Assembly (NCBI GenBank): GCA_022646745.1 | Contig: CP060262.1 | Coordinates: 1,751,149-1,815,148 of the forward strand | DNA length: 64,000 nucleotides | Source: Planctomycetales bacterium | GTDB taxonomy: Bacteria > 4484-113 > JAFGCY01 | Reading direction: 5' to 3' | Program-made: the position numbers and the translations under genes | Notes under the pieces: generated by a model | The model's database searches: none | Seen by the model: only the letters and a program-made list of their open reading frames with translations | What the model was told of the DNA's origin: nothing | In this document: one piece after another, positions 15,841 to 63,770 of the stretch | How positions within the stretch are numbered: the first letter of the stretch is position 1 | Layout of the letters: every line of letters starts with the position of its first letter

Positions 15841-16250
15841 TGGAAGAAGTCTGAATAGTGGAAGAAGTGATTAGTGTTTAGTTCTTAGTAGCGGCGGCGC
15901 CCCCGCCGCTGGGGCAGGTTGGAGTGGGGAGTTTGGAGTTGGGAGGCGCGCAACTTGTTTGCGCGCAATTCGATGGTGAAGCAGTCCGAAGAGGGTAAGA
16001 AGTTGCTAGTGTTTAGTTCTGAGTAGCAGCGGCGCCCCCGCCGCTGAGGGATGTCAGACGAAAGTCTGGCAACAGTTAGCAAAGGGCAGTAGGCAGCGGG
16101 CAGTAGGCAGGATGAGAATGAGAAACAGAATGAGAAGCAGCAGATGCCTATGCTCCCCTACTTCTTTCACTTCCCCCACTATGCAGACTATCCAGACTAC
16201 CGCTGAAGCAGGTAGCTCCGCACATCCCTCATCCCGCATCCCCAGCCAGG
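15841..16250. repeat. Repeat-rich, low-GC intergenic region with two copies of a ~45-bp direct repeat, each carrying a GC hairpin
   Basis: GTGATTAGTGTTTAGTTCTTAGTAGCGGCGGCGCCCCCGCCGCTGG (15868-15913) recurs at 16003-16048. Hairpin AGCGGCGG-CGCC-CCGCCGCT and palindrome GCGCGCAA-CTTG-TTTGCGCGC. Direct repeats GGGCAGTAGGCAG x2 and GAATGAGAA x3. Convergent gene ends on both sides. Confidence 0.5.
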
Positions 16251-16251
16251 C

Positions 16252-16992
16252 TTACAGCCTGGCCTCCCGTTCCTCCCTGTCACGCAGCCGCACATGTTCG
16301 CGCAGCACACCCGTTCCGAGCGTGATCTCCAGCAGGTTGGCAAAGCCCCATTGCCAGAGTGGCGTGGAGAGGATGAGCATGCCCAGCGGTGTGAAGCTGG
16401 CGATGCTCTGCGCATCGTGCAGCAGCAGGTTGAGCGCGGAAAGGATCATCAGCGGGGCAAGGGCGATCGTGCTGATTGCAGTCGCTGCACCTGGCCTGCG
16501 ACGCAGCTCCAGCAGGTAGGGTAGCTGCATCCCCGCGGCCCGGGCCCGGCCGAAGCCCGTTGCCAGGTTGAGGTGGATATGGTCGAGCCGGGCAAGGTAT
16601 CCGCTAGCGTAGTCCTCCACCGGTGGGTAGTTGTCGTCGCTGAGCAGCCGCAGCAGCAGGTCAGAACCGGCAATGCGTCGGCGCAGCTCCACGAGTAGCA
16701 TCCCCAGCCGCAGCAGCTGGAACAGGCCGAAGCAGAATGAGAGGATGAAGCCCGCCATCAGCAGGCGGAAGGGTGGTGTCTGGCTCACGCTGCCAGCCAG
16801 CGGGTAGTCAGCCGCAAGTGAGTACACCACGCGCCAGCCGCAGATAAGGTAGAGCACTACGGGGATGATCACGAGGAACAGCCAGGCGGCAAGCATTGTC
16901 ATTTCCGGTCCCAGCACGCGGCCGGCCGGCAGCACGCGCTCTCCCTGCGGCGGGGTGAACAGGATGCGCTCGAAACTGTGCCGCTCAGGCAT
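16252..16992 (-). CDS. 4-TM membrane protein, member 1 of a tandem paralog triplet (operon-distal)
   Basis: Start MPERHSFERILF… (ATG 16990-16992) overlaps the upstream gene stop by 8 nt. Topology is TM-TM, ~70-aa loop, TM-TM. C-terminus LREHVRLRD. Confidence 0.6.
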   Translation of the reverse strand: MPERHSFERILFTPPQGERVLPAGRVLGPEMTMLAAWLFLVIIPVVLYLICGWRVVYSLAADYPLAGSVSQTPPFRLLMAGFILSFCFGLFQLLRLGMLLVELRRRIAGSDLLLRLLSDDNYPPVEDYASGYLARLDHIHLNLATGFGRARAAGMQLPYLLELRRRPGAATAISTIALAPLMILSALNLLLHDAQSIASFTPLGMLILSTPLWQWGFANLLEITLGTGVLREHVRLRDREEREARL

Positions 16993-17800
16993 CGGTTGTC
17001 TGTCCTGTGTCAGACGGCTGGTCGATGTGCAGTAGGCCGTTGTCAAGCTCGCGCAGGTGCTCACGCAGCAGGGATTGCTGTACAAGCTGGTACATCACCG
17101 GCAGGGCCAGCCAGGTGATGATTACGGCCAGCACAACCTGCGTGACAGCAATGATGAATGTCTCGTTACCGCTGCCGTTGGCCGGCGCATTGGACCGCAG
17201 ATGGCTCAGTGGAACCAGGACTGGAACTGAGAGGCACAACCAGATCAGCAGCAGGTTCACGATCAGGGGAGGCCAGGGGGATTTCCTCAGGCCAATGCAG
17301 TAATCAAGCTGGCGGAAAGCCTCGATGAAGTGGTTCATCATTGTCTCTTTGCGCAATGCCAGCAGTTCGAAGCTGCGCAGCCAGCCCGCCAGCGGGCCAT
17401 CGTGGTACTCCACCCGCCAGCCATGCATCAGCCGGACCGCGATGTCGGACTGCTTCAGCCGGCTGCGCACCCTGTCCAGATGCGCCCGGGCGCGGCTGGT
17501 GAGGAACAGTGTTGCCAGCACCGGGGCCAGTACCGCAAGCACAAGAGCTGCGATGGTGAGGCCGTCCAGCTGCGGGTTGCCCTGGCTCGAGCCCAGCGTT
17601 GCCATCATCATGTCCACTATCAGGGAGATTGCAACAAACAGCAGGCTGATCATTGGCGCAAGCGTCAGGCCCATTGCCATCACCATGTTGATGAAGGCAT
17701 CCGCAGAATCCATCCGGCTCAGGCCGAAGCTCCTGCGGTCCATCTCGCCGAACACCTGCTGCTCCAGGCTGGCCCTGGGAGTGTCGGACACATCAGCCAT
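16985..17800 (-). CDS. 4-TM membrane protein, member 2 of the triplet
   Basis: 271 aa with the same topology. Loop motif KQSDIAVRLMHGW. C-terminus LLREHLRELD. Start overlaps the upstream stop by 8 nt. Confidence 0.65.
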   Translation of the reverse strand: MADVSDTPRASLEQQVFGEMDRRSFGLSRMDSADAFINMVMAMGLTLAPMISLLFVAISLIVDMMMATLGSSQGNPQLDGLTIAALVLAVLAPVLATLFLTSRARAHLDRVRSRLKQSDIAVRLMHGWRVEYHDGPLAGWLRSFELLALRKETMMNHFIEAFRQLDYCIGLRKSPWPPLIVNLLLIWLCLSVPVLVPLSHLRSNAPANGSGNETFIIAVTQVVLAVIITWLALPVMYQLVQQSLLREHLRELDNGLLHIDQPSDTGQTTDA

Positions 17801-18542
17801 GCAACACCTCCACTGCCGCTGGCCGTTGGCTCACGCTGGATGCCTGCTTGTCAAGGTCGCGCAGGTGCTCGCGCAGCAGCAATGCTTCACAGCGCTGCGC
17901 AAGAAAGGCATGCAGGCAGACATGCGTTGCCAGCAGCAGGCATGCTTCAATGGCTGCATAATTCAGGAAACTGTAGAAGTTGACCGGGGCATTGAGCACA
18001 ATGGCAACCAGCAGGGCTGCAAGCATGGGCAGCATCAGGATTGAAGGCAGCCAGCGCTGTTTTTCTCGGCCCTGCATGAAGGACAGCTGCTGGAATACCA
18101 GCCGCAGCTGCAGCGCCAGATCCCTGCCGGAATCAGTTTGCATTCCCTGCTCAATCTCCCTCAGCAATGCCAGGAACGGTGCATCCGGGCTGTCGGGTTG
18201 CCAGCCGGTCATGACCCTCGCCACCAGGTCAGAACGTCTCAGCATGCGCCTGGCGACGGAGATCCTGCGTGCCAGCAGCAGCAGGTTCAGCAGGCTGAGC
18301 AGTACGGCACTGAGCGCGAGCGACCAGCCAATGGTCTCAATGTATTCGTAATCAAAGGCATGGCGCACACCGGGATTGATAGCCTTGATTGGAGCGAGCG
18401 TGTACTGTAACCATAGGAGCGGCGGCAGCAGCGAAGGCACGAGGATGGCCAGCGCAGGCCACAGGGGATAGAGGTAAGTGCTGCGTGGTTCGCGACTGGC
18501 GTGCTCGCCAAACACCCGGTTCTCAAAGCTGGCCGTCTGCAT
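17793..18542 (-). CDS. 4-TM membrane protein, member 3 of the triplet (operon-proximal)
   Basis: Start chosen at MQTASFENRVFGE (RBS AGAGGGGA). A TATAAT box sits ~35 nt upstream on the minus strand. Loop motif RRSDLVARVMTGW. C-terminus LLREHLRDLD. The track ORF extends to 18689 through the repeat element. Confidence 0.55.
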   Translation of the reverse strand: MQTASFENRVFGEHASREPRSTYLYPLWPALAILVPSLLPPLLWLQYTLAPIKAINPGVRHAFDYEYIETIGWSLALSAVLLSLLNLLLLARRISVARRMLRRSDLVARVMTGWQPDSPDAPFLALLREIEQGMQTDSGRDLALQLRLVFQQLSFMQGREKQRWLPSILMLPMLAALLVAIVLNAPVNFYSFLNYAAIEACLLLATHVCLHAFLAQRCEALLLREHLRDLDKQASSVSQRPAAVEVLHG

Positions 18543-18616
18543 CGTCCCCTCTGTATCAAGCATGTCCATTCCCATGGGGATTATACGCCTGCGGGCATGG
18601 CTGCGCCAGCCTTGAC

Positions 18617-18767
18617 AGCAATGAGCAATGAAGAGTGAGCAATGAGTAGGAAGCAATGAGTAGGGATCAATGAAGAATGATCCTATCAATGTTTAGCAGG
18701 ACTCGATGCAGGTTCAGTCTCATTGCTCACTCTTCAGTGCTCATTGCTCCCCACTCATTGCTCCCCC
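18617..18767. repeat. Palindromic GAGCAATGAG-repeat element, copy a
   Basis: Arm CAATGAGCAATGAAGAGTGAGCAATGAG (18619-18647) is an almost perfect inverted repeat of CTCATTGCTCACTCTTCAGTGCTCATTGC (18719-18747). Additional (A)GCAATGAG direct repeats flank it. Located in the divergent promoter region between triplet gene 3 and the lipoprotein gene at 18828. Confidence 0.55.
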
Positions 18768-50217: not shown

Positions 50218-51102
50218 ATGCCATATAATCCTCATGTGGAACACGCATTGGACTGGAGCAAACTGGCTGAGTTGCTCCCACAGCTCGGCAGGGAGTATGC
50301 CCGACTGGCGGCCCGCTACCGCATCGTCCTGACCGTGCTTGCCATGCTTCCGCCACTCCTTATCCCGCTGGAAGCTGCCAAGTGGTTCTCAAGGAACCCC
50401 GCCGTCATCACGACTTTCGTCTGCATCTACCTGCTGATTGCCGCCGCGATTTTCGTCTACACCACACGCTGGGTGGAGAACGTGCGCAGCTTCGGCCAGC
50501 GGCGGATCATGGAGGACCGGCTCTGTTCCCGTACACTGGACCGCATCGAGCGCGACCATGGCAAGAGCGGCGAAATGAGCTTCGAGGAGATCTACCTGAC
50601 GGATGGCAGCGGGCTTGAGCGCCGCACCCGCAAGCAGATCATCTACTCCGAGAACGACATTGAAGTCAACATGGACCGCGGCCAGAAGCTGTTTGCCAAC
50701 AACAATGTCCCGCTGATGATCAACACCGCGATCGTGGCGGCCTACTGCCTGTTCACGATCATCGGCGGCTTCGTGCTGCCCTATGACGCGATCCAGGGGC
50801 AGGGCAAGCTGATGGTCGTGCAGGGCGTGATGCTGGTCTGTGTGCCGGCAGCAATCTTCGTGATCCAGGGCAGTTACCGCCAGCACCTGCTGAACCTCGT
50901 GATTGCGGAGCAGCTGCTGGAATACATCACGGATGACGACGCACGCGAGGCGATGGATTCATTCGTGCCCCAGCTTCCCGCGGAGGAAGCTGGCAACGAA
51001 GAGTACGCTGAAGAGAGCACCGGCGTGGAAAGCCTGCAGGCGGCCACCGGCGGGGATTCCTCCGAAGACCCGGGTGACGAGGGCGTGCAGGCCCAGGCCT
51101 AG
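50218..51102 (+). CDS. 4-TM membrane protein, possibly a distant member of the triplet family
   Basis: Topology TM-TM, ~85-aa loop, TM-TM. C-terminal amphipathic RQHLLNLVIAEQLLEYI followed by an acidic tail. Confidence 0.55.
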   Translation: MPYNPHVEHALDWSKLAELLPQLGREYARLAARYRIVLTVLAMLPPLLIPLEAAKWFSRNPAVITTFVCIYLLIAAAIFVYTTRWVENVRSFGQRRIMEDRLCSRTLDRIERDHGKSGEMSFEEIYLTDGSGLERRTRKQIIYSENDIEVNMDRGQKLFANNNVPLMINTAIVAAYCLFTIIGGFVLPYDAIQGQGKLMVVQGVMLVCVPAAIFVIQGSYRQHLLNLVIAEQLLEYITDDDAREAMDSFVPQLPAEEAGNEEYAEESTGVESLQAATGGDSSEDPGDEGVQAQA

Positions 51103-53881: not shown

Positions 53882-56800
53882 CTACTCGATGCAGATCGCG
53901 AGACCCATTCCTCCAGTGGTGGTTGTTCCTGCAACATCATTTCCGATCATCATCGCGTTTGGTTTGCGGGAGATGGTCGGCCCGCTAGTGACAGGTAGCC
54001 AGCTGCTGCCGTTGACATCCAGCCCACGCTGCAGGCTTGTGGTGAAGGGGCATTCATATATCCTGGGCAGGCCACTGCGATCCAGCAGTTGCGGGTAGTT
54101 GCCATAGGTGTTGGCTGTTGCGCCCAGTAGGTACTCGGTGCCGGACCAGCTGCTGCCATCCGCATTGTCAGACCGGATGTAGTAGAGCTGGTTCCAATTG
54201 AACAGCGCCATTGCCGGATAGCCGTCGATGATGGCCAGGTCGGGCCTGGAACGGAACTGCGCTACTGCAATCGGGGCGTTCCATGAACTGCCATCCGCAC
54301 TGCTGGCACGCAGGTACCAGATATAGCCCACTGACTCATCTGCATATGTGATGGCCGGATTGCCGTTCACGATGATCATGTCAGTGTCATGACCCGTGTC
54401 AGCCGTGCTGTCCAGCACCTGCACGCTGCCCCAGCTCGTGCCCTGTGCATCAAGCGCCCGGATGAAACACAGTCTGTTGGCAAGGTCATCCTGGAAGGAG
54501 AGGGCCGGATAACCGTCAACGATTGCCCCGCTGGAAAACACCACGCCGAGCCCGGTTGGGATGTCCACCGGTGCACTGGTCCAGCTGCTGCCGGAGGCAT
54601 CGTCAGCCCGGATGATCCTGAGCGTGTCAACCACATTGCGGCTGTAGATCACGGCCGGGTGTCCGTCCGCCTCAATCAGCTGCAGGCTGAGAATCGTGCC
54701 GCTGCCCACGATCTGGACCGGTGTGCTCCAGGCCCGGCCATCCGCCTGGCTGGCAATCGCAAAGCGGATTCCGGAACCGGATGGAGCAGTCGAGTAAGCC
54801 ACGGCGGGCATGCCGCCGATCAGCTCCAGGTCCTGGTAGTCCCCGACATTCACGCTGCTGTCAATTGGCACCAGCAGCGGGTTGCAGTCGATCGTCAGGC
54901 TGTCCGTGTGCACATGACCATCGTTGTCAGTCACCTGCATCACCACTGTGTAGTCACCGATGCCGAAGTCATGGGAGACGGTCGGGTCCGTGCCGCTTGC
55001 CTCGTCATAGCTTCCATCGCCGTCCCAGTCCCAGGAGTAGTCGACAATGCTGCCATCCACATCGAATGACTGGCTGGCATCGAAGTTCACCGTCAGGATG
55101 CATTCACCTGCTGTCACGTCGCTGGTGAGGATGGCGTAGGGCCAGTATTCACCATCCCCTCCCAGGGCAAGTAACTGGCCATCCACGGGTAGATAGGTAG
55201 TCCCGTCAGTGCCGATCACGGGCTGGTAGGTTGCGGGGGCATCGTCCTGCAGGGCATAAACCCAGTCTGACAGCCCGGTGGAACTGGCAATCCCACGAGC
55301 GTCGTCATTGGTGCCGCAGATTATTGAATCGGAGGCATCCACTGTCGGATTGTGAAAGATGCTGAACGAATTCAGGAAGTTCCAGTTCTGGTTGCCGGCC
55401 GGGTCATATGAACGAATGCTGCTGTTCTTGTAGGCAATGATGTTGCCGGCATTGTCTACCCCGAAATGGCCGACTCCCCCGAAGAACAGATCCTGCCAGT
55501 CAAGAGTTCCGTCAGGCAGGTAGCTGTACACATGTGTGAATCCCACGATGATGTTCCCTGTGGGGGTGACCAATGGTGCCACATCGGGAGAGGAGGGCAC
55601 CTTCCACTGGAAATTGCCGTCAGGATCCACACAGTAGACAAAGTCATTAGTCGGGAAGATGATGTTGCCGGACAGGTCAAAGCAGCTGGCCTGGCTGACA
55701 TCGTAGTTCTTTCCTGTGCTGTATTCCCAGAGGAAATTGCCGTCTGGATCATGGCACACAAGACGGGCGGGGGATTCGGTGGAATAGTAGATATTGCCGT
55801 TCGGTCCGATGCTGGCCGTGGTGTACATCTCCGCAGTGTGGCCCGATTTCCAAAGGAAGTTGCCATTGAAGTCGATCTTCTCCAGCTGGGCATCGCTCGC
55901 ACTCGACGTGAGGATGCCGTCCACCGCCAGACACGGGCCGATTACCGGCCCCCAGGTCGGGTAGGTCCACAGCTCCTGGCTGTCCTGGCTGATCGCGCGC
56001 AGAAGCGCTCCATCATTCAGCAGCACAACATCATCGGGTGTGATTACCAGGTTACGTGGAGAGTTGCTGAAGTGCAGGTACCATCGCCTGTCCGGATCCG
56101 GGTCTGCAATGTTCATTGACTGACCGTTGCCCCTGGAATTTCCATTGGCCGTCCACCACACATCATCGCCGGGCGGGCTGGGGGCGGTGCAGATCTCCAT
56201 CGTGCGCGTACTGAAGACACCTGAGTCGTCATAGGCATAACAGACAACCACATGCCGCAGGGTACCGGACAGGGTCGTCCCCGTTGTCGGCGAACTGCCC
56301 GTCTCATCCATCACACCGTCGCCATCGAAGTCCCAGCGGTATTCCACGATGGAGCCGTCGGGGTCGTAGGAAGCCGAGGCGTCGAAGCTGACCGACAGGG
56401 GGCTGGCCCCGCTGTAGGCACTGGCGGTGCACAGCACCACCGGCAACTGGTTTGCAGCGCTGACGGTCACCTGCAGGCTGTCGTTGTCCTGCAGCCCGTC
56501 GTTGTCAGTCACGCGCAGGGTGACGGTGAATTCACCGGCGTCATTGAAGGTCCAGTCAACGGTATCGCCGGCATCGGTCAGGTCCCAGACACCGTCCGTG
56601 TTGAAGTCGTAGTCGTAGCTGACGATGCTGCCGTCCGGGTCGCTGGAGCCTGTGGCGTCGAAGTTCACCTGCAGCGGGGCTTCGCCGGAATTCAAATCAG
56701 AAGCCAGCACGGCAATCGGTGGCGTACCTTCAATGGGCGGGTTGCCGATGCAGCTCAGCATGCCGTTTGGCATCACGATCAGCACCCTGCCGTCAGCCCC

Positions 56801-59494
56801 GATCACCGGGCCGTGGAAGGTGCCAGTGCCCATGTCCTGGTCAAAGAACAGATTGCCATTGGCATCGAATGCCATCACCCAGCCGCTTGAGTCATTGAAG
56901 TAAGTGTTGTCCTGTGAGTCGATTGCCACACCACGGATGCCGTAGATATGTGGCTTGACATGCCAGTCAACCGAGCCATCGGAGGGATCAACCTGGTAGA
57001 TGTCACCGGAGCTGGTTCCGATGCGCAGCTTGCCATCGCGGGACTCAGCGCTGATCACGTGGTTGTCCGCCAGCGGAACTGACCACTGCTCCTGCAGCTG
57101 GCTGTCATAGGCGACGAGATTCGCATCGGTGTCGCCGACCATCAGCAAACCATCCCGGTTCAGCATCGCGATGCCCCGTGCACCGAGCATATCCTCAGTC
57201 AGTGCTGCATCAATTGAGGTCCAGCTGTACCAGCCGATGCCACTGCCGTAGACGACGCCCCGTGCCCCGTCAATCATCGGCATTGTCAGGCCGCCCTGCG
57301 TCGGCAGGTCCAGCTGCCAGAAGGTATTCCCGCTGCCGTCGATCAGTGCGACCTTGTCCGTGCCGACCAGCAGCGCGCGGTCCAGGGCATGGCTGTAGGT
57401 GGCACTGAGCACTGGGTCCGTCAGTCCGCTGGTCTGCCAGACCTGCGCTCCGCTGGCATCCAGGCAGACCGCGCCGCCGGCCGTGGATGGCACCAGCAGG
57501 TGGTCATCGTCAATCACGCTGATCTCGGGGGCACCGCTGATCGGCTTGTCCCAGTTCAGCCCGCCGTCCTTGTCCAGGCTGAACATCACGTTGTCAGTGG
57601 TGGCGAAGTAGATGTTGCCGGCGCTGTCAACCACGGGAATATGGTGGATCGTGCCCGGTGCCGGTGCATCGTAGGTCCACAGCACTTCCGCTCCGGCAGT
57701 GAATCCGGGCGAGGGACTGCGCCGCGTGTTCCAGGCGGTTGCCCCCGGCACGGGCCAGCTCGAGTGGAAGATGTGCACCGCCGCACTTGTGCTGTCCTGG
57801 AATCCGTTGTTGTCAGTCACCCGCAGCCTGACGCGGTAGCTGCCGGGGCTGTTGAACTGGTGCGTCAGCGTATCCTCGCTGCCCTGCTGGTCATAGCTGC
57901 CGTCACCGTCAAAGTCCCATTCATACAGTTCGATTGTGCCGTCAGGGTCCATGCTGGCACTGCCGTCAAGCTGGACCAGGGCGCCGGCAAAGCCGTCGCT
58001 CTCGGGATACGCAAGGACCGCAACCGGTGGTTCTCCGGATGCCGCAACACTGATCTGCAGCTCATCGGTGTCAACTGCCCCGTTGTCATCAATCACCCGG
58101 AAACGGGCGGTGAACTCCCCGGGCTGCATGTAGACATGCACATACGGCGTGATCGGGTCGGGGCCGGAGATGTCGTAGAAGCCGTCACCGTCATAGTCAA
58201 GCGCATAATCCACGATGTAGCCGTCAGGGTCCGAAGCCGTGCTGCTGAAGCCGACGGACAGCGGCGCATCACCGGAAAGCACATCTGCCGCGGCTGCGAC
58301 CTGTGGCGGCTGGTTGTCAGTTACCAGCACGCAGCAGGCTGCCAGCCGAACCGCCTGCTGGTCCGCCGTACGCGAGAGGATGCCGGGACGCATGAAGCCT
58401 GCTGGCTGAGCCACGGTCGTGAAGCTGCCCAGCACCTGTCCGGTCTGCTCGAAGCTGCCGTCACCGTTGCCATCGAGGTCATAGCTCTCCGCTCCGACCA
58501 CATCAACATCCAGTAGCGTATCGGTCTTTGGCTCATTTGAGTCCGGCAGCAGCAGTGGAATGGAGGCGGTACCGATGCCGGGCTCAAACTGCAGCACATC
58601 ACTAAGCAGGCCCTGATTGCCAGCGAAGTCGACGGCTGTCAGGGCAGCCCAGCCACCGCCGGGCATTTCCAGCTGGCAGAGCGGGCCGGCAAACAGGAAC
58701 TCGTGCAGGGTCACACCCGGGTCCCCCGTCCCGCTGAACTGGCTGGACGATGTATAGAGCCGGTAACCGGCGATCGAGGGATCCGCAAGCCTTGTCCAGC
58801 CTGCCAGGATGCCGCCGGCAGCCGGCTGCACGAAGAAGTCCTCCACCGCATCGGGCGAAGTGAAGTCCTCAGTATCAAGCATGTTGACGGAACAGTTGAC
58901 CACATCCAGCCGAGCGCCCTGGCTGGCAACCACGGCGACGAATGTGTTGCCAAGCGAACTCGTGTAGTCTGTGGCATTGTCGAACAGCGGAATGCGCAGC
59001 TGGCTGTCGTGGATCGGGCCGAACCAGTCCCAGCGGCCTGTGGTGTAGTTCGCCAGCCCGACCGAATAGCTGCTGGCCTTGCCTTTCGAGTCCTCCAGCG
59101 GATTGATGTCAAGGCTCACTACCGCCGGGCTGCCACCATGGTTGTCAATCCGGTAGATGCACGATGCACTGGAATCTGCGGATGCGCCGCCGGTAAGCCT
59201 GGCTGCAATGCCCATCCGTATCACATCACCACTGCGCCGGAACCAGTCAAATCCAAGTACGACTTCAGACTGGTCATTGATTGCCAACGGACTGCGCTGG
59301 TTGAACTGTGATTGCGGATCCAGTTCCCAGGCATGCGGCCTGTCCTGCGGAATCACGGTAAACGGGTCAGGGCTTGCGGCTAATGTTCCAGCCGGCTCAA
59401 GGCCGGATTGCTGGCCGAACTGTCCGCCCCCACAGGATATGCAAATCATTGCAAGCAAGACGGTTGAGCTGAGCAATGAAAGTAGAGATTTCAT
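53882..59494 (-). CDS. Giant (1870 aa) cell-surface lipoprotein: W-G-P domain + multiple PKD domains + PQQ-like beta-propeller + C-terminal BNR/Asp-box propeller
   Basis: Start MKSLLSLLSSTVLLAMICISCGG (ATG 59492-59494). N-terminal domain …NYTTGRWDWFGPIHD… homologous to the 21312/22287 lipoproteins. At least 5 PKD motifs (YALDYDGDGFYD, YEWDFDGDGSYD, YDYDFNTDGVWD, YRWDFDGDGVMD, YSWDWDGDGSYD). PQQ-like repeats (…GNIYFATTDNVMFSLDKDGGLNW…). Six C-terminal SxDxGxxW Asp-box repeats (SADGSSW, NADGSSW, DASGSSW, DAQGTSW, QADGRAW, DVNGSSW). Confidence 0.8.
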   Translation of the reverse strand: MKSLLSLLSSTVLLAMICISCGGGQFGQQSGLEPAGTLAASPDPFTVIPQDRPHAWELDPQSQFNQRSPLAINDQSEVVLGFDWFRRSGDVIRMGIAARLTGGASADSSASCIYRIDNHGGSPAVVSLDINPLEDSKGKASSYSVGLANYTTGRWDWFGPIHDSQLRIPLFDNATDYTSSLGNTFVAVVASQGARLDVVNCSVNMLDTEDFTSPDAVEDFFVQPAAGGILAGWTRLADPSIAGYRLYTSSSQFSGTGDPGVTLHEFLFAGPLCQLEMPGGGWAALTAVDFAGNQGLLSDVLQFEPGIGTASIPLLLPDSNEPKTDTLLDVDVVGAESYDLDGNGDGSFEQTGQVLGSFTTVAQPAGFMRPGILSRTADQQAVRLAACCVLVTDNQPPQVAAAADVLSGDAPLSVGFSSTASDPDGYIVDYALDYDGDGFYDISGPDPITPYVHVYMQPGEFTARFRVIDDNGAVDTDELQISVAASGEPPVAVLAYPESDGFAGALVQLDGSASMDPDGTIELYEWDFDGDGSYDQQGSEDTLTHQFNSPGSYRVRLRVTDNNGFQDSTSAAVHIFHSSWPVPGATAWNTRRSPSPGFTAGAEVLWTYDAPAPGTIHHIPVVDSAGNIYFATTDNVMFSLDKDGGLNWDKPISGAPEISVIDDDHLLVPSTAGGAVCLDASGAQVWQTSGLTDPVLSATYSHALDRALLVGTDKVALIDGSGNTFWQLDLPTQGGLTMPMIDGARGVVYGSGIGWYSWTSIDAALTEDMLGARGIAMLNRDGLLMVGDTDANLVAYDSQLQEQWSVPLADNHVISAESRDGKLRIGTSSGDIYQVDPSDGSVDWHVKPHIYGIRGVAIDSQDNTYFNDSSGWVMAFDANGNLFFDQDMGTGTFHGPVIGADGRVLIVMPNGMLSCIGNPPIEGTPPIAVLASDLNSGEAPLQVNFDATGSSDPDGSIVSYDYDFNTDGVWDLTDAGDTVDWTFNDAGEFTVTLRVTDNDGLQDNDSLQVTVSAANQLPVVLCTASAYSGASPLSVSFDASASYDPDGSIVEYRWDFDGDGVMDETGSSPTTGTTLSGTLRHVVVCYAYDDSGVFSTRTMEICTAPSPPGDDVWWTANGNSRGNGQSMNIADPDPDRRWYLHFSNSPRNLVITPDDVVLLNDGALLRAISQDSQELWTYPTWGPVIGPCLAVDGILTSSASDAQLEKIDFNGNFLWKSGHTAEMYTTASIGPNGNIYYSTESPARLVCHDPDGNFLWEYSTGKNYDVSQASCFDLSGNIIFPTNDFVYCVDPDGNFQWKVPSSPDVAPLVTPTGNIIVGFTHVYSYLPDGTLDWQDLFFGGVGHFGVDNAGNIIAYKNSSIRSYDPAGNQNWNFLNSFSIFHNPTVDASDSIICGTNDDARGIASSTGLSDWVYALQDDAPATYQPVIGTDGTTYLPVDGQLLALGGDGEYWPYAILTSDVTAGECILTVNFDASQSFDVDGSIVDYSWDWDGDGSYDEASGTDPTVSHDFGIGDYTVVMQVTDNDGHVHTDSLTIDCNPLLVPIDSSVNVGDYQDLELIGGMPAVAYSTAPSGSGIRFAIASQADGRAWSTPVQIVGSGTILSLQLIEADGHPAVIYSRNVVDTLRIIRADDASGSSWTSAPVDIPTGLGVVFSSGAIVDGYPALSFQDDLANRLCFIRALDAQGTSWGSVQVLDSTADTGHDTDMIIVNGNPAITYADESVGYIWYLRASSADGSSWNAPIAVAQFRSRPDLAIIDGYPAMALFNWNQLYYIRSDNADGSSWSGTEYLLGATANTYGNYPQLLDRSGLPRIYECPFTTSLQRGLDVNGSSWLPVTSGPTISRKPNAMMIGNDVAGTTTTGGMGLAICIE

Positions 59495-59578
59495 GAACTG
59501 TCCGCCATATCGGAATAAGCAAGACTGTATCAAAATCTCCTATGCACATGCAATATGCAGCCAAATCAGTCGCCGGGT

Positions 59579-59604
59579 AACAAAAAGGCCCGCCGGAGCG
59601 GGCC
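59579..59604 (-). terminator. Rho-independent terminator for the Cys-rich lipoprotein gene (GGCCCGC-TCCG-GCGGGCC + TTTTTGT on minus strand)
   Basis: Perfect 7-bp GC stem with a T5 tail when read on the minus strand, ~70 nt after the 59672 stop. Confidence 0.6.
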
Positions 59605-59671
59605 TCTAAGTTGTTCAGGTTCCAGCCTGCAGCCGGCTCTCACCGCCTGCATTGCCCGAATGGCGAAGGGC

Positions 59672-60196
59672 TTAACCCTTGGTGCCGGTCTCGGTGCTGG
59701 CAGTGTCGTCCTTCTCCGTGGACTTCTCCTTGCCTTCGCAGTCACCGCAGTCCTTGCCATCGCAGTCGCCGCAGTCCTTGCCTTCCTTGCCCTCGCAGCC
59801 TTCCTTGCCCTCACAGCCTTCCTTACCGCAGCAGTCCTTCTCGCCTTCGCCGCCCATGCTGGCGTCGGTGGTCACGATGCCTTCCTTGGCCTCGGCGGCG
59901 CAATGCTCACAGGTGCCACCCTCGGCAGCAGCGCACTCAGCGCAGGCTTCCTTGGAAGCAGCCTCGGTCGCCTTGTCACCGGCACAACCGGCGCAGCTGC
60001 TGCAGCCGCCTTCAGCGGCCTCAGCGCCACAGGGGTTGGCAGCCGGGGGAGCCACACCGGTGTCGGTGCTGGCGTTGACGGTCTCGACGGCCTTGCCGTT
60101 GTCGGCGGCATCCGCGCTGTAGTTGCTGTCATTACAGCCGGCTGCCACCAGGATGGCCGCCAGCGCAAGAAGAAGCATTGCAATTCTGAATTTCAT
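59672..60196 (-). CDS. Cys-rich repetitive lipoprotein (174 aa), metal-binding-like C(G/E)(K/D)(E/D)GC repeats
   Basis: RBS AAGGAGAT. MKFRIAMLLLALAAILVAAGCNDS lipobox. C-terminal CCGKEGCEGKEGCEGKEGKDCGDCDGKDCGDCEGKE. Many CxxC and CAEC pairs. Confidence 0.65.
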   Translation of the reverse strand: MKFRIAMLLLALAAILVAAGCNDSNYSADAADNGKAVETVNASTDTGVAPPAANPCGAEAAEGGCSSCAGCAGDKATEAASKEACAECAAAEGGTCEHCAAEAKEGIVTTDASMGGEGEKDCCGKEGCEGKEGCEGKEGKDCGDCDGKDCGDCEGKEKSTEKDDTASTETGTKG

Positions 60197-60340
60197 CGTT
60201 TGATCTCCTTGGTACTGTGCTCGCCGGCCATCAGACGGACCGGCTGCTACCGCAGCTTGAACGTGCAGACTATATAACATGGCTGCACGACCCTTGCGCA
60301 AATGATCGCAAGACACTGCTCTGACGCAAAACGGCGCGGA

Positions 60341-61069
60341 TTATTCGATTCCGGCATTTGATTCACCTGCTTCATCCTCTGGATCTTCCCTGCTGAAGCG
60401 TGATTCCAGTTCCTCGAGGATCAGCAAAAGCTCGATCCGGCGCCTGAGCATCTCCGGCAGCATGCTGATGAACACCATTCCCATCAGGATCCCGAAGCTC
60501 GGCACATAGGCAAGCTGCGGCAGCTCCAGCAGCTGCCCGATGATCACGATCCCGAGCAGCCCGTACACCGTCCAGCAGGCATATGCGTACCTGCGCAGCG
60601 GGTCACTCTTCCGCGGTGGATGGGTCAGCACGAAGCGGTTTGCGATCAGGTGCTTTGAGGCATAGTGCAGCCAGCCGCGCAGGTCCTGGCCCTGCTGCAC
60701 CCAGGCCTCAAGGGAATTGTCGCGCAGGATGAGCGTGCCGTGCGGCACCTCGCGCTGGTCCATGTGGATGATCATGCGGGTGGCGAACTGCTGCACGGCC
60801 TGGCTGTCCTGCAGCAGCGGCCGGAAACTGTCCATCAGCATCCGGCTCAGGCGGCAGGCCAGCAGGTAGCACAGCCCCCAGCCGGGCAGCAGCATGGCGA
60901 GGCCGAGCAGGATTGGGTTGGGCAACCAGTCCGGTGCGGTCAGGTAGAAATCCAGCGCCAGCATCAGGTTGAAGTACAGCGCGGGCAGCAGCGAGAAGAA
61001 GAACAGCGTATAACCCAGCATCTCATGCTGCACCCGGGCCCGCTCCTTCAGTTCGTGGCCGATGTCCAT
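60341..61069 (-). CDS. 4-TM membrane protein, second triplet, member 1 (operon-distal)
   Basis: 242 aa. TM-TM, loop, TM-TM. C-terminal EMLRRRIELLLILEELE amphipathic helix and an acidic tail. Confidence 0.6.
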   Translation of the reverse strand: MDIGHELKERARVQHEMLGYTLFFFSLLPALYFNLMLALDFYLTAPDWLPNPILLGLAMLLPGWGLCYLLACRLSRMLMDSFRPLLQDSQAVQQFATRMIIHMDQREVPHGTLILRDNSLEAWVQQGQDLRGWLHYASKHLIANRFVLTHPPRKSDPLRRYAYACWTVYGLLGIVIIGQLLELPQLAYVPSFGILMGMVFISMLPEMLRRRIELLLILEELESRFSREDPEDEAGESNAGIE

Positions 61070-61120
61070 CGCGCGCTGATTATAGGGGGATGCCGAAATC
61101 TAGTGGCGTCGCCCCGTCGC

Positions 61121-61864
61121 CTAGGCCCTCAGCCTCCTGATCACTTCCTCGGGCAGCAGGTAGCGCCAGACATTGTTGCGGATAAAGTTTCCACTCAAGA
61201 AAATCAGCAACACAATTTGCATCAGGAACGGATGAGTCAGTTTCACAATATCCAAAACGACGAAAACCATGACAAATGCAACGATTGGAATCATGAAGGA
61301 TGTGATTTTCGCTCCCCTTTTGGAGTCATTGTCCACAGTAAGCGATTCCAGGAATTGCATCCTGTGTCCTAACCAGTTTATCCAGTCCGCTGTTTCCATT
61401 TCAGTGCGAGCTGACTCGCTGAATTTAGTCCCGCCGAAGGTCAGGCAGCCCAGTGCCGGCATTTTCTGCAATTTCTCTTCAGGAATCTGATGTGTCATGA
61501 TCTGCCAGACAGCATCGCCATCCTGAATCCGGGACTTTCCGCTGTTCTCATATTTGGCAACCTGACCGTGAATCCATTTGTCCACCACATATCTTGCAAG
61601 GATTGCCAGACCCAGAGCGACGCAAAACAGGCCCACCTGCCATTTCCATCCGGGGGGAAGTAGTGAATAAACAGGCGGAACCAGCAGATATGGAATGGAC
61701 AGTACCGCGAAAGCGGTTAACCATGTAAAGCCAAAAATCCAGGATGCGAGCATCCGGCGTGCATAATCCGCCTGTCGTTTGAGTTGGATCAACAGGCGTT
61801 CGTGCTCTATCTGGCGAGTCGCCGTTTCCGGTACTGCGTTGCCAGAAGAATCATGTGCACTCAA
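61121..61864 (-). CDS. 4-TM membrane protein, second triplet, member 2
   Basis: C-terminus RYLLPEEVIRRLRA. Start overlaps the upstream stop (ATGA). Confidence 0.6.
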   Translation of the reverse strand: MSAHDSSGNAVPETATRQIEHERLLIQLKRQADYARRMLASWIFGFTWLTAFAVLSIPYLLVPPVYSLLPPGWKWQVGLFCVALGLAILARYVVDKWIHGQVAKYENSGKSRIQDGDAVWQIMTHQIPEEKLQKMPALGCLTFGGTKFSESARTEMETADWINWLGHRMQFLESLTVDNDSKRGAKITSFMIPIVAFVMVFVVLDIVKLTHPFLMQIVLLIFLSGNFIRNNVWRYLLPEEVIRRLRA

Positions 61865-62550
61865 GCCCTCAGTCTCCTCAGCACTTCCTCTGGCAGCAGA
61901 TAGCGCAGCATCTGGGTCCGCATTTGCCCGTCAACCGAGCCGAAGGGTACTAGCATGAAAACCAGTAGCAGTGAAAAGGGTTGCAGCTCCAGGGCAATGC
62001 CACGGGCTTGCAATAGATAAAGTGATATGGATGCAGCCAGCAGAAGTATCATTGCAACGAAGCCTCCATATGGCTGCAACCGCAGATTGGGAAGTTCCTT
62101 TTCAACACGGTGCAACTGGCCCAGCAACCACGTACTCAAATCTTGCCCGTCCTTCAGTTCCACGAACCTGTTCTTCTCCAGCGACGGTTCGCCCTGGAGA
62201 TTGTCAAGGTTGATCCTCCATTCACCTGTCGTACCGGTCATGATGTTGCGCACAGCATCGCTGCCGGCAAGATGCCTGGCCGTTTTGATTCCGATTATCC
62301 GCAGCCGATGATTCAGATACATCCAATAAACTGCTCCAGAAACAATGCCGGCCATGCAACCGGTTTCCCAGGGAATATTGGGGTCATAGGTGATGCCTGG
62401 CAGCTGCTCCTGGATATCTCCGGCAATGGAACCGGCGATCAATCCGCAGAACACGGCCAGTCCGGCGGCCAGGGCGAATATATAAAAGGTCATGCAGCGC
62501 CGCTCGAAGCTGATCGTCTTCTCAAGCCTGTCCGTATAGCTCCCCGTCAC
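61861..62550 (-). CDS. 4-TM membrane protein, second triplet, member 3 (operon-proximal)
   Basis: N-terminal TISFERR motif and loop motif AGSDAVRNIMTGTTGEW, as in triplet 1. C-terminus RYLLPEEVLRRLRA. Confidence 0.6.
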   Translation of the reverse strand: MTGSYTDRLEKTISFERRCMTFYIFALAAGLAVFCGLIAGSIAGDIQEQLPGITYDPNIPWETGCMAGIVSGAVYWMYLNHRLRIIGIKTARHLAGSDAVRNIMTGTTGEWRINLDNLQGEPSLEKNRFVELKDGQDLSTWLLGQLHRVEKELPNLRLQPYGGFVAMILLLAASISLYLLQARGIALELQPFSLLLVFMLVPFGSVDGQMRTQMLRYLLPEEVLRRLRA

Positions 62551-62629
62551 ATCCCAGATTCTACATTGACTTCCATTGCAGCTTACATGGACATCCCGTA
62601 TCTATAATGGATGCGAGGAGCAATGCACC

Positions 62630-63655
62630 ATGCACACCCGTTTATTCCTGCCTGCCATCGCGGCCCTGCTGGCCGCCCAAGCCATGACTAGCCCCGCGCG
62701 CGCTGATCAGCCGGCGGGTGATGACCCGCTGCGCATCTATGCGCTGGATGAGGAACGCAGCCTGTTCGACAGCGGCATCGTGAGCTGGGAGAGATTCATC
62801 TCCGACCTTGCCGCTGCTGACGTCGTGTTCCTCGGCGAGTACCACGACGATGACGCCAGCCACCGCGTGCAGCTCAGGGTGCTTGACGAACTGGCCTGGC
62901 GCCACGACATGCAGCTCAGCCTGGCGATGGAACAGTTCGAGCGCGATGTGCAGCAGGTGCTTGACGCCTACCTCAGGGGCGAGATTGACGAGGAGGCCTT
63001 CCTCGCGGACAGCCGCCCCTGGCCGAACTACCCGGAGCATTACCGGCCGCTGATCGAATACTGCCGCGAGTACGGCATCCCGGTGCGCGCCGGCAACATC
63101 CCGCGGCGCTTCGCGAGCAAGGTTGCCAAGAGCAGCCTGCCGGAGATGTACGGGGAACTGACGGAGGAGGAGCGGCCCTGGGTCGCGGGGGCCACCGTCA
63201 ATGAGCACAATGCCTACTATGACAACTTCGTGAACGCGATGGGCGGGCACGGCAGCGGCATGAGCGACGAGACCTTCGCGAAGTTCTATGAGGCGCAGTG
63301 CATCAAGGATGACACGATGGCCGAGAGCATCGCCATGATCCGCGATGCCGGGCCGGACAGGCCGGTGCTGCACGTGAACGGCAGCTTCCACAGCGACTAC
63401 GGGCTGGGCACGGTGGAGCGCCTCATTCAGCGCCGCCCGGCTGACAATGTGGTGGTGGTCGCGCTGCGCCCCGTCGACAGTTTCACGGGACTGATGCCCT
63501 TTGAGGACCGCGAGCTGGCGGACTACATCGTCTATGTGCCGGGCCCGCAGTGGGGAATGTGGAAGAAGGAAACGATGGCCCGCGAGGCGGCAGCCGCAGA
63601 AGCCGCGGCAGCGGAAGAAGCAGCCGCTGAAGAAGCAATGAGCAATGAAGAATGA
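62630..63655 (+). CDS. ChaN-family (haem-binding uptake, Tiki/TraB superfamily) periplasmic protein
   Basis: Signal peptide MHTRLFLPAIAALLAAQAMTSPARA. DVVFLGEYHDD… and …HVNGSFHSDYG motifs typical of ChaN/PF04187. The C-terminal A/E-rich tail is encoded by the repeat element. Confidence 0.6.
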   Translation: MHTRLFLPAIAALLAAQAMTSPARADQPAGDDPLRIYALDEERSLFDSGIVSWERFISDLAAADVVFLGEYHDDDASHRVQLRVLDELAWRHDMQLSLAMEQFERDVQQVLDAYLRGEIDEEAFLADSRPWPNYPEHYRPLIEYCREYGIPVRAGNIPRRFASKVAKSSLPEMYGELTEEERPWVAGATVNEHNAYYDNFVNAMGGHGSGMSDETFAKFYEAQCIKDDTMAESIAMIRDAGPDRPVLHVNGSFHSDYGLGTVERLIQRRPADNVVVVALRPVDSFTGLMPFEDRELADYIVYVPGPQWGMWKKETMAREAAAAEAAAAEEAAAEEAMSNEE

Positions 63656-63770
63656 GCAATGATTTTTGAGTGATGAGAAGTGAGTAATGAGCAATGAGTT
63701 CAACTCACTGTGACGTCACCTCGTTGCCTGTCAGGCTCATTGCTCACTCTTCATCACTCATTGCTCCTCA
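63636..63770. repeat. Palindromic GAGCAATGAG-repeat element, copy b
   Basis: GCAATGAGCAATGAAGAATGAGCAATGA … GTGATGAGAAGTGAGTAATGAGCAATGAG, then a spacer containing the perfect palindrome GTGACGTCAC, then the inverse arm GCTCATTGCTCACTCTTCATCACTCATTGCTCC. Shares the exact 17-mer TCATTGCTCACTCTTCA with copy a. Confidence 0.55.

Follow-up and report, generated by a model that had tools for sequence, protein, structure and literature searches.

An apparently lineage-restricted family of predicted four-pass membrane proteins encoded in tandem arrays of varying copy number

This study concerns a run of three minus-strand genes, referred to as triplet 2, within a 64,000-nucleotide stretch of DNA from a bacterium deposited as Planctomycetales bacterium (GTDB lineage 4484-113; assembly GCA_022646745.1, contig CP060262.1, positions 1,751,149 to 1,815,148). 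The whole stretch is called the window, and all positions refer to it unless stated otherwise. The genes were named T2A (61861-62550; 229 amino acids [aa], GTG start), the first gene of the array, predicted to encode a four-pass membrane protein; T2B (61121-61864; 247 aa, TTG start), a paralog of T2A; and T2C (60341-61069; 242 aa, ATG start), a more divergent paralog. The coordinates exactly matched the original prediction, a reading of the window from its DNA alone, which had described three overlapping or near-overlapping open reading frames (ORFs) of these sizes. Gene callers place the start of T2A at an ATG at codon 20, yielding a protein of 210 aa; the GTG start is, however, supported by the conservation of residues 2-10 in the allele of a close relative. 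T2A and T2B overlap by 4 nt (TTGA), so that the start codon of T2B overlaps the stop codon of T2A, suggesting translational coupling, and an AGGAGA sequence lies within the sequence encoding the T2A tail, about 9 nt upstream of the T2B start codon. A gap of 51 nt lies between T2B and T2C. A perfect TATAAT is located at 61079-61084 on the minus strand, 9 nt upstream of the T2C start codon and without a Shine-Dalgarno sequence in between, and is also kept in the close relative, where an opposing gene parts T2C from T2A. T2C may be transcribed from a promoter of its own into an mRNA that is leaderless or nearly so. In a consensus scan of positions 59500-62750, promoter and terminator sites were no more numerous than in shuffled sequences.

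A second array in the window, triplet 1, is also encoded on the minus strand and consists of T1A (17793-18575; about 260 aa), T1B (16985-17800; 271 aa) and T1C (16252-16992; 246 aa, identical to the database protein P0008). The start of T1A was set at MGMDML; a longer ORF extends into a repeat element. T1A and T1B overlap by 8 nt (ATGGCTGA), as do T1B and T1C (ATGCCTGA). In the following, loci of relatives that were compared with the window carry L numbers (L001, L002, L009, L013, L016 and L020-L024) and database homologs carry P numbers. The ATGCCTGA stop/start overlap (..D-A-stop / M-P-E..) occurs at 16985-16992 of the window and at positions 1713, 2524, 3323 and 4194 of L020, thus at all four junctions of that array, and is conserved at T1B-type junctions across genomes, which accounts for the conserved C-terminal 'DA' and N-terminal 'MPE' of T1B-type proteins. 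The overlaps of 4-8 nt suggest that neighbouring array genes are made together. In addition, a solitary ORF on the plus strand, S7 (50218-51102), encodes a four-pass protein of 294 aa and is a probable remote member of the family. S7 is single copy and syntenic in relatives, where it is better conserved (54-61% identity) than the array genes.

Kyte-Doolittle hydropathy analysis of the six array proteins and S7 yielded the same layout throughout, two transmembrane (TM) helices, a loop of 71-94 aa and two further TM helices, in agreement with the arrangement originally proposed. Two of the 28 helices remained under the hydropathy cut-off (TM2 of T2A and TM4 of T1C), of which TM2 of T2A is helical in an AlphaFold2 (AF2) model. 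Among 13 members, lysine and arginine residues are concentrated at the N-terminus (3-6), in the central loop (9-15) and at the C-terminus (2-5), compared to 0-2 in the short hairpin loops, and the predicted topology is therefore N-in/C-in, with merely 3-31 residues per loop exposed to the periplasm. Thus, the proteins are predicted to be four-pass inner-membrane proteins whose N-terminus, central loop and C-terminus are cytoplasmic. The AF2 models of T2A (predicted local distance difference test [pLDDT] 81.8, predicted TM-score [pTM] 0.75) and T1B (pLDDT 84.8, pTM 0.81), both built from one mixed alignment, show an identical order of helices: an N-terminal helix leading into TM1, TM2 with a cytoplasmic extension of about 15-20 residues, three to five short loop helices, TM3, and TM4 leading into a C-terminal helix. 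A conserved proline marks the start of TM3.

Pairwise BLASTP was significant only between T2A and T2B (E=6e-7, over the full length) and between T1A and T1B (E=3e-10). Profile alignment by hhalign confirmed the relation of T2A and T2B (P=4.6e-8), and the T2A/B profile matched T2C with P=9e-4 over 205 collinear columns and with P=2.3e-7 when T2C was combined with its positional ortholog L013_233. T1A/B and T1C profiles matched with P=4.8e-12. Judged by their sequences, T2A, T2B and T2C certainly represent one family, and the paralogy originally claimed for the three genes was borne out. The relation between the two triplets was less obvious. Profiles built from the window sequences alone gave P values of 0.06-0.1 for triplet 1 against triplet 2, no better than reversed-sequence controls (0.12-0.13), and HMMER searches with such profiles against about 700 window ORFs returned other family members merely as the top non-self matches at E values of about 0.1. 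A nine-sequence HMMER profile was then used to search 1.84 billion representative proteins and retrieved 21 proteins at E<=1e-3, which BLASTP sorted into T1A-, T1B-, T1C-, T2A-, T2B- and S7-like proteins and one intermediate, P0024. With these deeper profiles, all T1 against all T2 sequences gave P=5e-5 over 135 collinear columns in one MAFFT mode (reversed control 0.089) and P=2.8e-3 under another alignment mode, with reversed controls ranging overall from about 0.05 to 0.09. As the window-only profiles equalled their controls, significance was reached only upon adding homologs from other genomes. The lack of a significant score between the triplets, named in the original prediction as the outcome that would speak against their kinship, was hence obtained with the shallow profiles but not with the deeper ones.

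An alternative would be that triplet 1, triplet 2 and S7 share no common ancestry, and that the layout and the short motifs arose by convergence or reflect the composition of small helical membrane proteins. The insignificant BLASTP scores across the groups and the window-only profile scores at control level are in line with this explanation, as are the direct profile comparisons of S7 with either group, which gave P values of 0.01-0.09, and the ability of layout-preserving shuffles to enter an iterative search. It is opposed by the deeper profiles, by their matches always covering the same motif region in the same order, and by P0024, which bridges both groups with profile matches of 1.8e-4 and 7e-4. 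Furthermore, the groups co-occur only in the same narrow lineage. Iterative searches were carried out against 1067 sequences comprising the family members, about 870 background ORFs, and reversed and locally shuffled decoys. Seeded with T2C, jackhmmer recruited in turn the T2 group, the S7 group, P0024, the T1B-like and the T1A-like proteins, not reaching the T1C-like clade, and included no reversed decoy or background ORF; nor did any other iterative search. We therefore consider an independent origin of the groups improbable, and triplets 1 and 2 are probably remote homologs. S7, which was joined to the family only transitively through T2C, may on balance well belong to it, so that the original suggestion of a seventh relative is plausible while its direct profile support is limited to the P values given above.

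T2A harbours TISFERR at aa 12-18 and LAGSDAVRNIMTGTTGEW at aa 94-111 (62218-62271, minus strand), the latter in the cytoplasmic segment following TM2, and both align column for column with the motifs of triplet 1 with which the original prediction had matched them. The equivalents of the post-TM2 motif are located at 61478-61528 in T2B, 60770-60817 in T2C, 18201-18242 in T1A, 17417-17458 in T1B, 16633-16674 in T1C and 50500-50547 in S7, and profiles of the N-terminal halves of T1 and T2 matched exactly on this region (P=6e-4). A further motif occupies the C-terminal helix (RYLLPEEVLRRLRA in T2A, 61864-61905, minus strand), with a copy in T2B at 61124-61165 and a diverged version in T2C at 60395-60454. 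Both motifs, R..L..[SD][DPEQ].V.[RQ].M.G after TM2 and LL.E..[LV].R after TM4, are collinear in T2A-C, T1A-C and P0024, diverged in T2C and loose in S7. E222 and R225 in the C-terminal helix of T2A are conserved to at least 90% in the 20-21 sequences of two alignments (A3 and A4). The tails of T2A and T2B, RYLLPEEV(L/I)RRLRA, are encoded by a 42-nt DNA repeat (37 of 42 positions identical), the counterpart in T1A and T1B being 32 nt long (30 of 32 identical). As T2A/B-like proteins of other species share RYLLPEE[VI]LRRL at the C-terminus, the sequences identify these tails as a conserved motif of the whole subfamily rather than a signature of the triplet. The original prediction had correctly noted the tail shared by T2A and T2B but had assigned a different one to T2C; this tail, LLLILEELESRF, can be aligned with the LLxEE..R motif of the other two and is a diverged version of it. 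T1C carries the triplet-1 tail motif as well (VLREHVR), so that the proposed '2+1' contrast between two similar genes and a dissimilar third is softer than claimed.

Conservation is nearly confined to the cytoplasmic segments, namely to the TM2 extension (R..L..SD.V.R.M.G) and the post-TM4 helix (LL.E..R). In the T1B-like set, 32 of 128 columns in the four conserved cytoplasmic segments (34 of 143 including the C-terminal tail) were conserved to at least 85%, compared to 2 of 128 in the TM helices and periplasmic loops, and the T2A/B-like set gave 19 of 117 and 1 of 112, respectively. The TM2 extension contributed 7 of 26 and 6 of 30 such columns in the T1B-like and T2A/B-like sets, respectively, and the post-TM4 helix 12 of 20 and 10 of 21. 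The TM helices and periplasmic loops are thus the fastest-evolving parts of the proteins.

The family appears to be restricted to one uncultured candidate-phylum lineage, with genome bins that carry the label UBP7 or 4484-113. In word-indexed searches of 5.8 billion proteins, four clusters were obtained with T2A, six with the family profile and seven with S7. Of 185,579 species genomes subjected to a pattern scan, two contained the family, UBP7 HKST-UBA03 (JAGRNT01; record title 'MAG: bacterium isolate UBP7 HKST-UBA03') and AC1.30 (JAWLAZ01). A near-identical triplet 1 is present in GCA_020440645.1 (JAGRNR01), and ENA bins with homologs are labelled 'Bacteria_4484_113_JAFGCY01'. Three UBP7 metagenome-assembled genomes are reported in a study on saline activated sludge (PMC8495973), from which the HKST isolates presumably stem. 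Pattern scans of JGI metagenomes with the T2 and T1B motifs yielded no match. The gene neighbourhoods common to all loci likewise suggest that the family is private to this lineage. The S7 ortholog P0028, located on a 129-kb JGI contig (L024), is named 'MFS family permease' in its source, a name that no profile search supports.

Comparison with known families did not identify any relative. No match above the cut-offs was obtained for the seven proteins and 20 family members in Pfam, NCBIfam, PADLOC, PHROGs or PDB sequence profiles; PADLOC-DB 2.0 returned no family for ten members at E<=1, the best PHROGs match was a holin (E=0.031, T1B only), and the best Foldseek match in BFVD had E=1.9. A phage tail assembly protein, the best match among PDB sequences (E=0.019), was judged spurious. 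Three resemblances were followed up, and each membership test failed, so that they are resemblances only. MotA consists of two TM pairs around a cytoplasmic loop, with both termini in the cytoplasm. The family shares with MotA/ExbB/TolQ (PF01618) the order TM1-TM2, cytoplasmic loop of 70-90 aa, TM3-TM4 with cytoplasmic termini, and with MotA also TM helices that reach into the cytoplasm and a conserved proline at the start of TM3; neither a profile match to PF01618 nor an adjacent MotB/ExbD/TolR-type partner was found. The two-TM SLATT effector domains (PF18181; NF033634) resemble the family in their module of helix, TM hairpin and helix. S7 matched them below the threshold (E=0.064), as did one of 20 family members (E=0.12), and an internal duplication test of the T1B-like set gave a hint that the module is repeated in both protein halves (12 columns, P=5e-4), which was not the case in the T2 set. 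However, the best SLATT score was 13.2 bits against a cut-off of 41, the family has four TM helices instead of two, and no SMODS/SLOG or other nucleotide-signalling gene occurs nearby. Finally, the TM domain of type IV ABC exporters (PF00664; CydDC, Atm1, MsbA) likewise has long TM helices continuing as cytoplasmic helical hairpins and provided the top Foldseek matches in the PDB, which were insignificant (E>=0.28, TM-score <=0.26); T1B reached 17 bits to CydC at a cut-off of 329. In contrast to these exporters, the family has four helices rather than six and no nucleotide-binding domain.

Each genome contains three syntenic chromosomal places for members of the family: the T1 array between a lipoprotein gene and an ABC exporter, the T2 array with a ChaN-like gene on one side and the gene of a Cys-rich lipoprotein on the other, and the single-copy S7. 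The content of the two array places varies considerably. The T2 place holds three genes in the window and in L013 (191, 236 and 233 aa), and two genes in L001/L002 and in L016, where both are T2B-like and no T2C-type gene is present. At the T1 place, two genes, both T1B-like, were found in L024, three (A-B-C) in the window and L009, and four in L020, L021 and L022. The four genes of L020 are all T1B-like and each overlaps the next by ATGCCTGA, whereas L021 and L022 have the composition a-B-c-C; in L023 the order is B-A-C. An additional 302-aa gene between T1C and the ABC exporter of L009 was considered as a fourth paralog, but encodes an unrelated soluble protein.

The original prediction had interpreted the two triplets as an obligate three-subunit assembly duplicated as a unit, that is, a hetero-trimeric A-B-C membrane complex encoded by a three-gene operon. 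Such a complex would be in accordance with the three genes at both loci of the window, the greater similarity of the first two genes to each other than to the third, and the gene overlaps, which suggest coupled translation. Phylogenetic analysis did not support this proposal. In a neighbor-joining tree of 28 members (243 columns, 100 bootstraps), the genes clustered by locus, with all T1 proteins forming one clade in 91 of 100 and T1A together with T1B-like proteins in 86 of 100 bootstraps, while the positional pairings T1A with T2A and T1C with T2C were never recovered (0 of 100 each). As the grouping follows locus and never position, the arrays have expanded independently at each locus. Neither BLASTP nor window-only profiles detected member-to-member similarity across the triplets. 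The obligate nature of the assembly also conflicts with orthologous loci of two, three or four genes in varying order and with the absence of T2B from L001 and of a T2C-type gene from L016. The '2+1' appearance merely reflects how old the duplications are, and other genomes do not show it. Since copy number, order and content vary, 'three' is the state of this genome and not a rule of design. A block-duplicated obligate trimer is thus already contradicted by the data and highly improbable. Instead, the arrays have grown and shrunk locus by locus, by tandem duplication, loss and allele replacement, to between two and four copies.

The T2 locus of the close relative L001 further illustrates this turnover. 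Compared to the window, the flanking DNA is about 89-92% identical, the flanking proteins are 92-99% identical, and T2C and S7 share 97% and 99% identity, respectively. In contrast, the counterpart of T2A is just 46% identical and T2B is missing, its place being taken by a Y1-transposase-like gene in opposite orientation, with GC-rich hairpins on its flanks. The synonymous divergence (dS) of T2A between the window and L001 is 1.4, compared to 0.2-0.3 for its neighbours, so that the two T2A alleles are far older than the divergence of the genomes, pointing to allele replacement or a long-maintained polymorphism at this slot. The L001 gene matches T2A at its 5' end and T2B at its 3' end and downstream. 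A simple T2A/T2B recombinant was nevertheless rejected, as the middle of the gene, about 71% identical or unalignable, matches neither; a distinct old allele combined with the loss of one gene was favoured. The array genes are real and under purifying selection, with ratios of nonsynonymous to synonymous divergence (dN/dS) against close relatives of 0.08 (T2C), 0.27 (T1B) and 0.18 (T1C), compared to 0.04 for the ABC exporter. Within triplet 1, a mosaic divergence boundary was observed (16252-18575 compared to L009); dS against GCA_020440645.1 was 0.015 for T1A, 0.17-0.25 for T1B and T1C and 0.11 for the ABC exporter. This mosaic suggests recombination within the array.

These features form the basis of the main rival reading, in which the proteins belong to a conflict system, providing diversifying immunity or exclusion against membrane-acting toxins or phage proteins, with the variable TM hairpins as specificity determinants and the paralog arrays widening the range. 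Polytopic immunity proteins against pore-forming colicins and membrane-targeting toxins of contact-dependent inhibition (CDI) or type VI secretion systems (T6SS) occur as tandem arrays. The family resembles these as a set of small multi-pass paralogs in tandem whose copy number and alleles vary between strains and whose TM segments and periplasmic loops diverge fast. The turnover between close relatives, the ancient T2A allele and the loss of T2B in a near-identical background, the higher dN/dS of T1B and T1C relative to the ABC exporter, the limitation to one lineage, and the transposase-like Y1 genes in or beside arrays of two genomes would all fit such a role. However, no toxin, delivery, secretion-system or defence gene was adjacent in any locus examined, and there was no Pfam immunity or PADLOC match. 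Rather than islands, the arrays occupy conserved chromosomal positions, surrounded by syntenic housekeeping genes (plsX, fabH, rsmG, purE). Simple intramembrane immunity proteins would not be expected to carry strongly conserved cytoplasmic motifs, and rapid divergence of TM segments is also common in families that are not involved in conflict. A conflict role therefore has to be taken seriously but appears unlikely.

The neighbouring genes raise another explanation, according to which the family members serve the exported proteins encoded next to them, or the ABC exporter, as dedicated partners in the membrane, whether by anchoring them, by assisting in sorting or assembly, or by relaying signals. 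A gene for an exported protein lies beside every locus: a homolog of the Cys-rich lipoprotein follows the T2 array on the same strand in four of four loci, a CAP-domain protein precedes S7, a Tyr/Gly-rich lipoprotein is found next to the T1 arrays, and a PKD protein follows the solitary P0024. In addition, the T1 arrays always flank the same ABC exporter, to whose class of TM helices the family shows the weak Foldseek and NCBIfam resemblance described above. Against a dedicated partnership, gene order is broadly conserved in the lineage, which makes adjacency weak evidence, the exported neighbours are unrelated to one another, and the conserved surfaces of the family are cytoplasmic whereas the neighbours are periplasmic or secreted. 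The similarity to ABC exporters is not significant, and the T2 and S7 loci lack an ABC neighbour. We regard this possibility as rather remote.

Several features of the surroundings may be recorded here. The lipoprotein gene downstream of triplet 2 (59672-60196; start MKFRIAML) encodes a lipobox and many CxxC and C-x-G-K-E-G-C repeats; the protein had no Pfam match and may bind metal. The adjoining region, 53882-59533, encodes a secreted protein of 1883 aa with repeated PKD-like and beta-propeller-like segments. In L001 and L013 this gene is missing at the syntenic position, so that it represents a large indel between close relatives. Tandem repeats of 7, 14 or 21 nt based on AGCAATG occur at 18617-18766 and 63634-63698. 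Those upstream of T1A form a long imperfect inverted repeat with arms at 18617-18680 and 18714-18766 that are up to 97% complementary over 30 nt. A similar heptamer run of nine copies is located just past the ChaN-like gene, and the corresponding segment of L001 is 76% identical to the element upstream of T1A over 140 nt. The Y1 (IS200/RAYT-like) transposase genes lie inside the T2 array of L001 (10828-11283; also in L002) and directly after the four-gene T1 array of L020 (4491-5141); the L001 and L020 proteins share a mere 26% identity. Several hairpins of the type GGCGAC...GTCGCC flank the gene in L001, and a degenerate copy occurs in the T2B-T2C spacer of the window (61085-61120). Two identical GC-rich palindromes (GCGGCGGGGGCGCCGC) are found at 15894-15909 and 16029-16044, within a direct repeat of about 135 nt in the spacer between T1C and the ABC exporter, the same spacer that holds the gene for the 302-aa soluble protein in L009.

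Taken as a whole, we lean, with due caution, towards a lineage-private family whose arrays vary independently and whose members serve as interchangeable protomers of an oligomer in the membrane that exposes an interaction surface to the cytoplasm. The paralogs would assemble into homo- or hetero-oligomers, and the variation in copy number and order makes interchangeable protomers likelier than fixed subunits A, B and C. The TM hairpins would provide a membrane anchor and a packing surface that tolerates rapid change, whereas the functional cytoplasmic module, a surface for partner binding or gating, would be made up of both juxtamembrane helices and the small helices of the loop. Overlapping genes of an array would be co-translated. 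Since the TM helices lack conserved polar or charged residues, the proteins are unlikely to act as a selective channel or transporter.

A number of observations weigh against this interpretation. We infer the assembly from paralogy, coupling and the pattern of conservation alone. T2C need not be co-expressed with the other genes, since it follows T2B after a spacer and is parted from T2A by the opposing transposase-like gene in L001. The similar architecture of T2A and T1B does not count as independent evidence, because both AF2 models share the mixed alignment. The link between T1 and T2 is weak at the sequence level, its P value depending on the quality of the alignment and vanishing with shallow profiles. 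When seeded with T1B, jackhmmer also drew in locally shuffled decoys that keep the TM layout, and iterative searches on TM proteins can drift and are not fully safe. Finally, a conflict-type role would explain the fast turnover and the old allele at the T2A slot no less well than a structural complex does.

The family is new in sequence and fold, as no relative was found in Pfam, NCBIfam, PADLOC, PHROGs, PDB sequences, PDB folds or BFVD, and this newness refers to the family and its fold and not to a mechanism. A more far-reaching notion, which we consider doubtful, is that the arrays represent an undescribed diversifying inner-membrane system private to the candidate phylum, in which interchangeable four-pass protomers that combine hypervariable membrane faces with a constant cytoplasmic module are shuffled by duplication, loss and allele replacement, which could tune specificity in a conflict, such as the exclusion of toxins or phages, or in the recognition of variable partners. 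If so, not only the fold of the proteins but also their mode of action would be new. Otherwise, the family would be one of many uncharacterised lineage-specific expansions, its use lying mainly in annotation as a new DUF-type family and in the caution that copy number in one genome should not be taken as stoichiometry. The arrays provide a clean example of lineage-private membrane proteins with tandem-array turnover at fixed chromosomal sites, including one slot, T2A, with deeply diverged alleles in otherwise near-identical genomes. Should the variable membrane faces indeed set specificity, the family would constitute a new conflict or recognition module in a phylum without cultured members.

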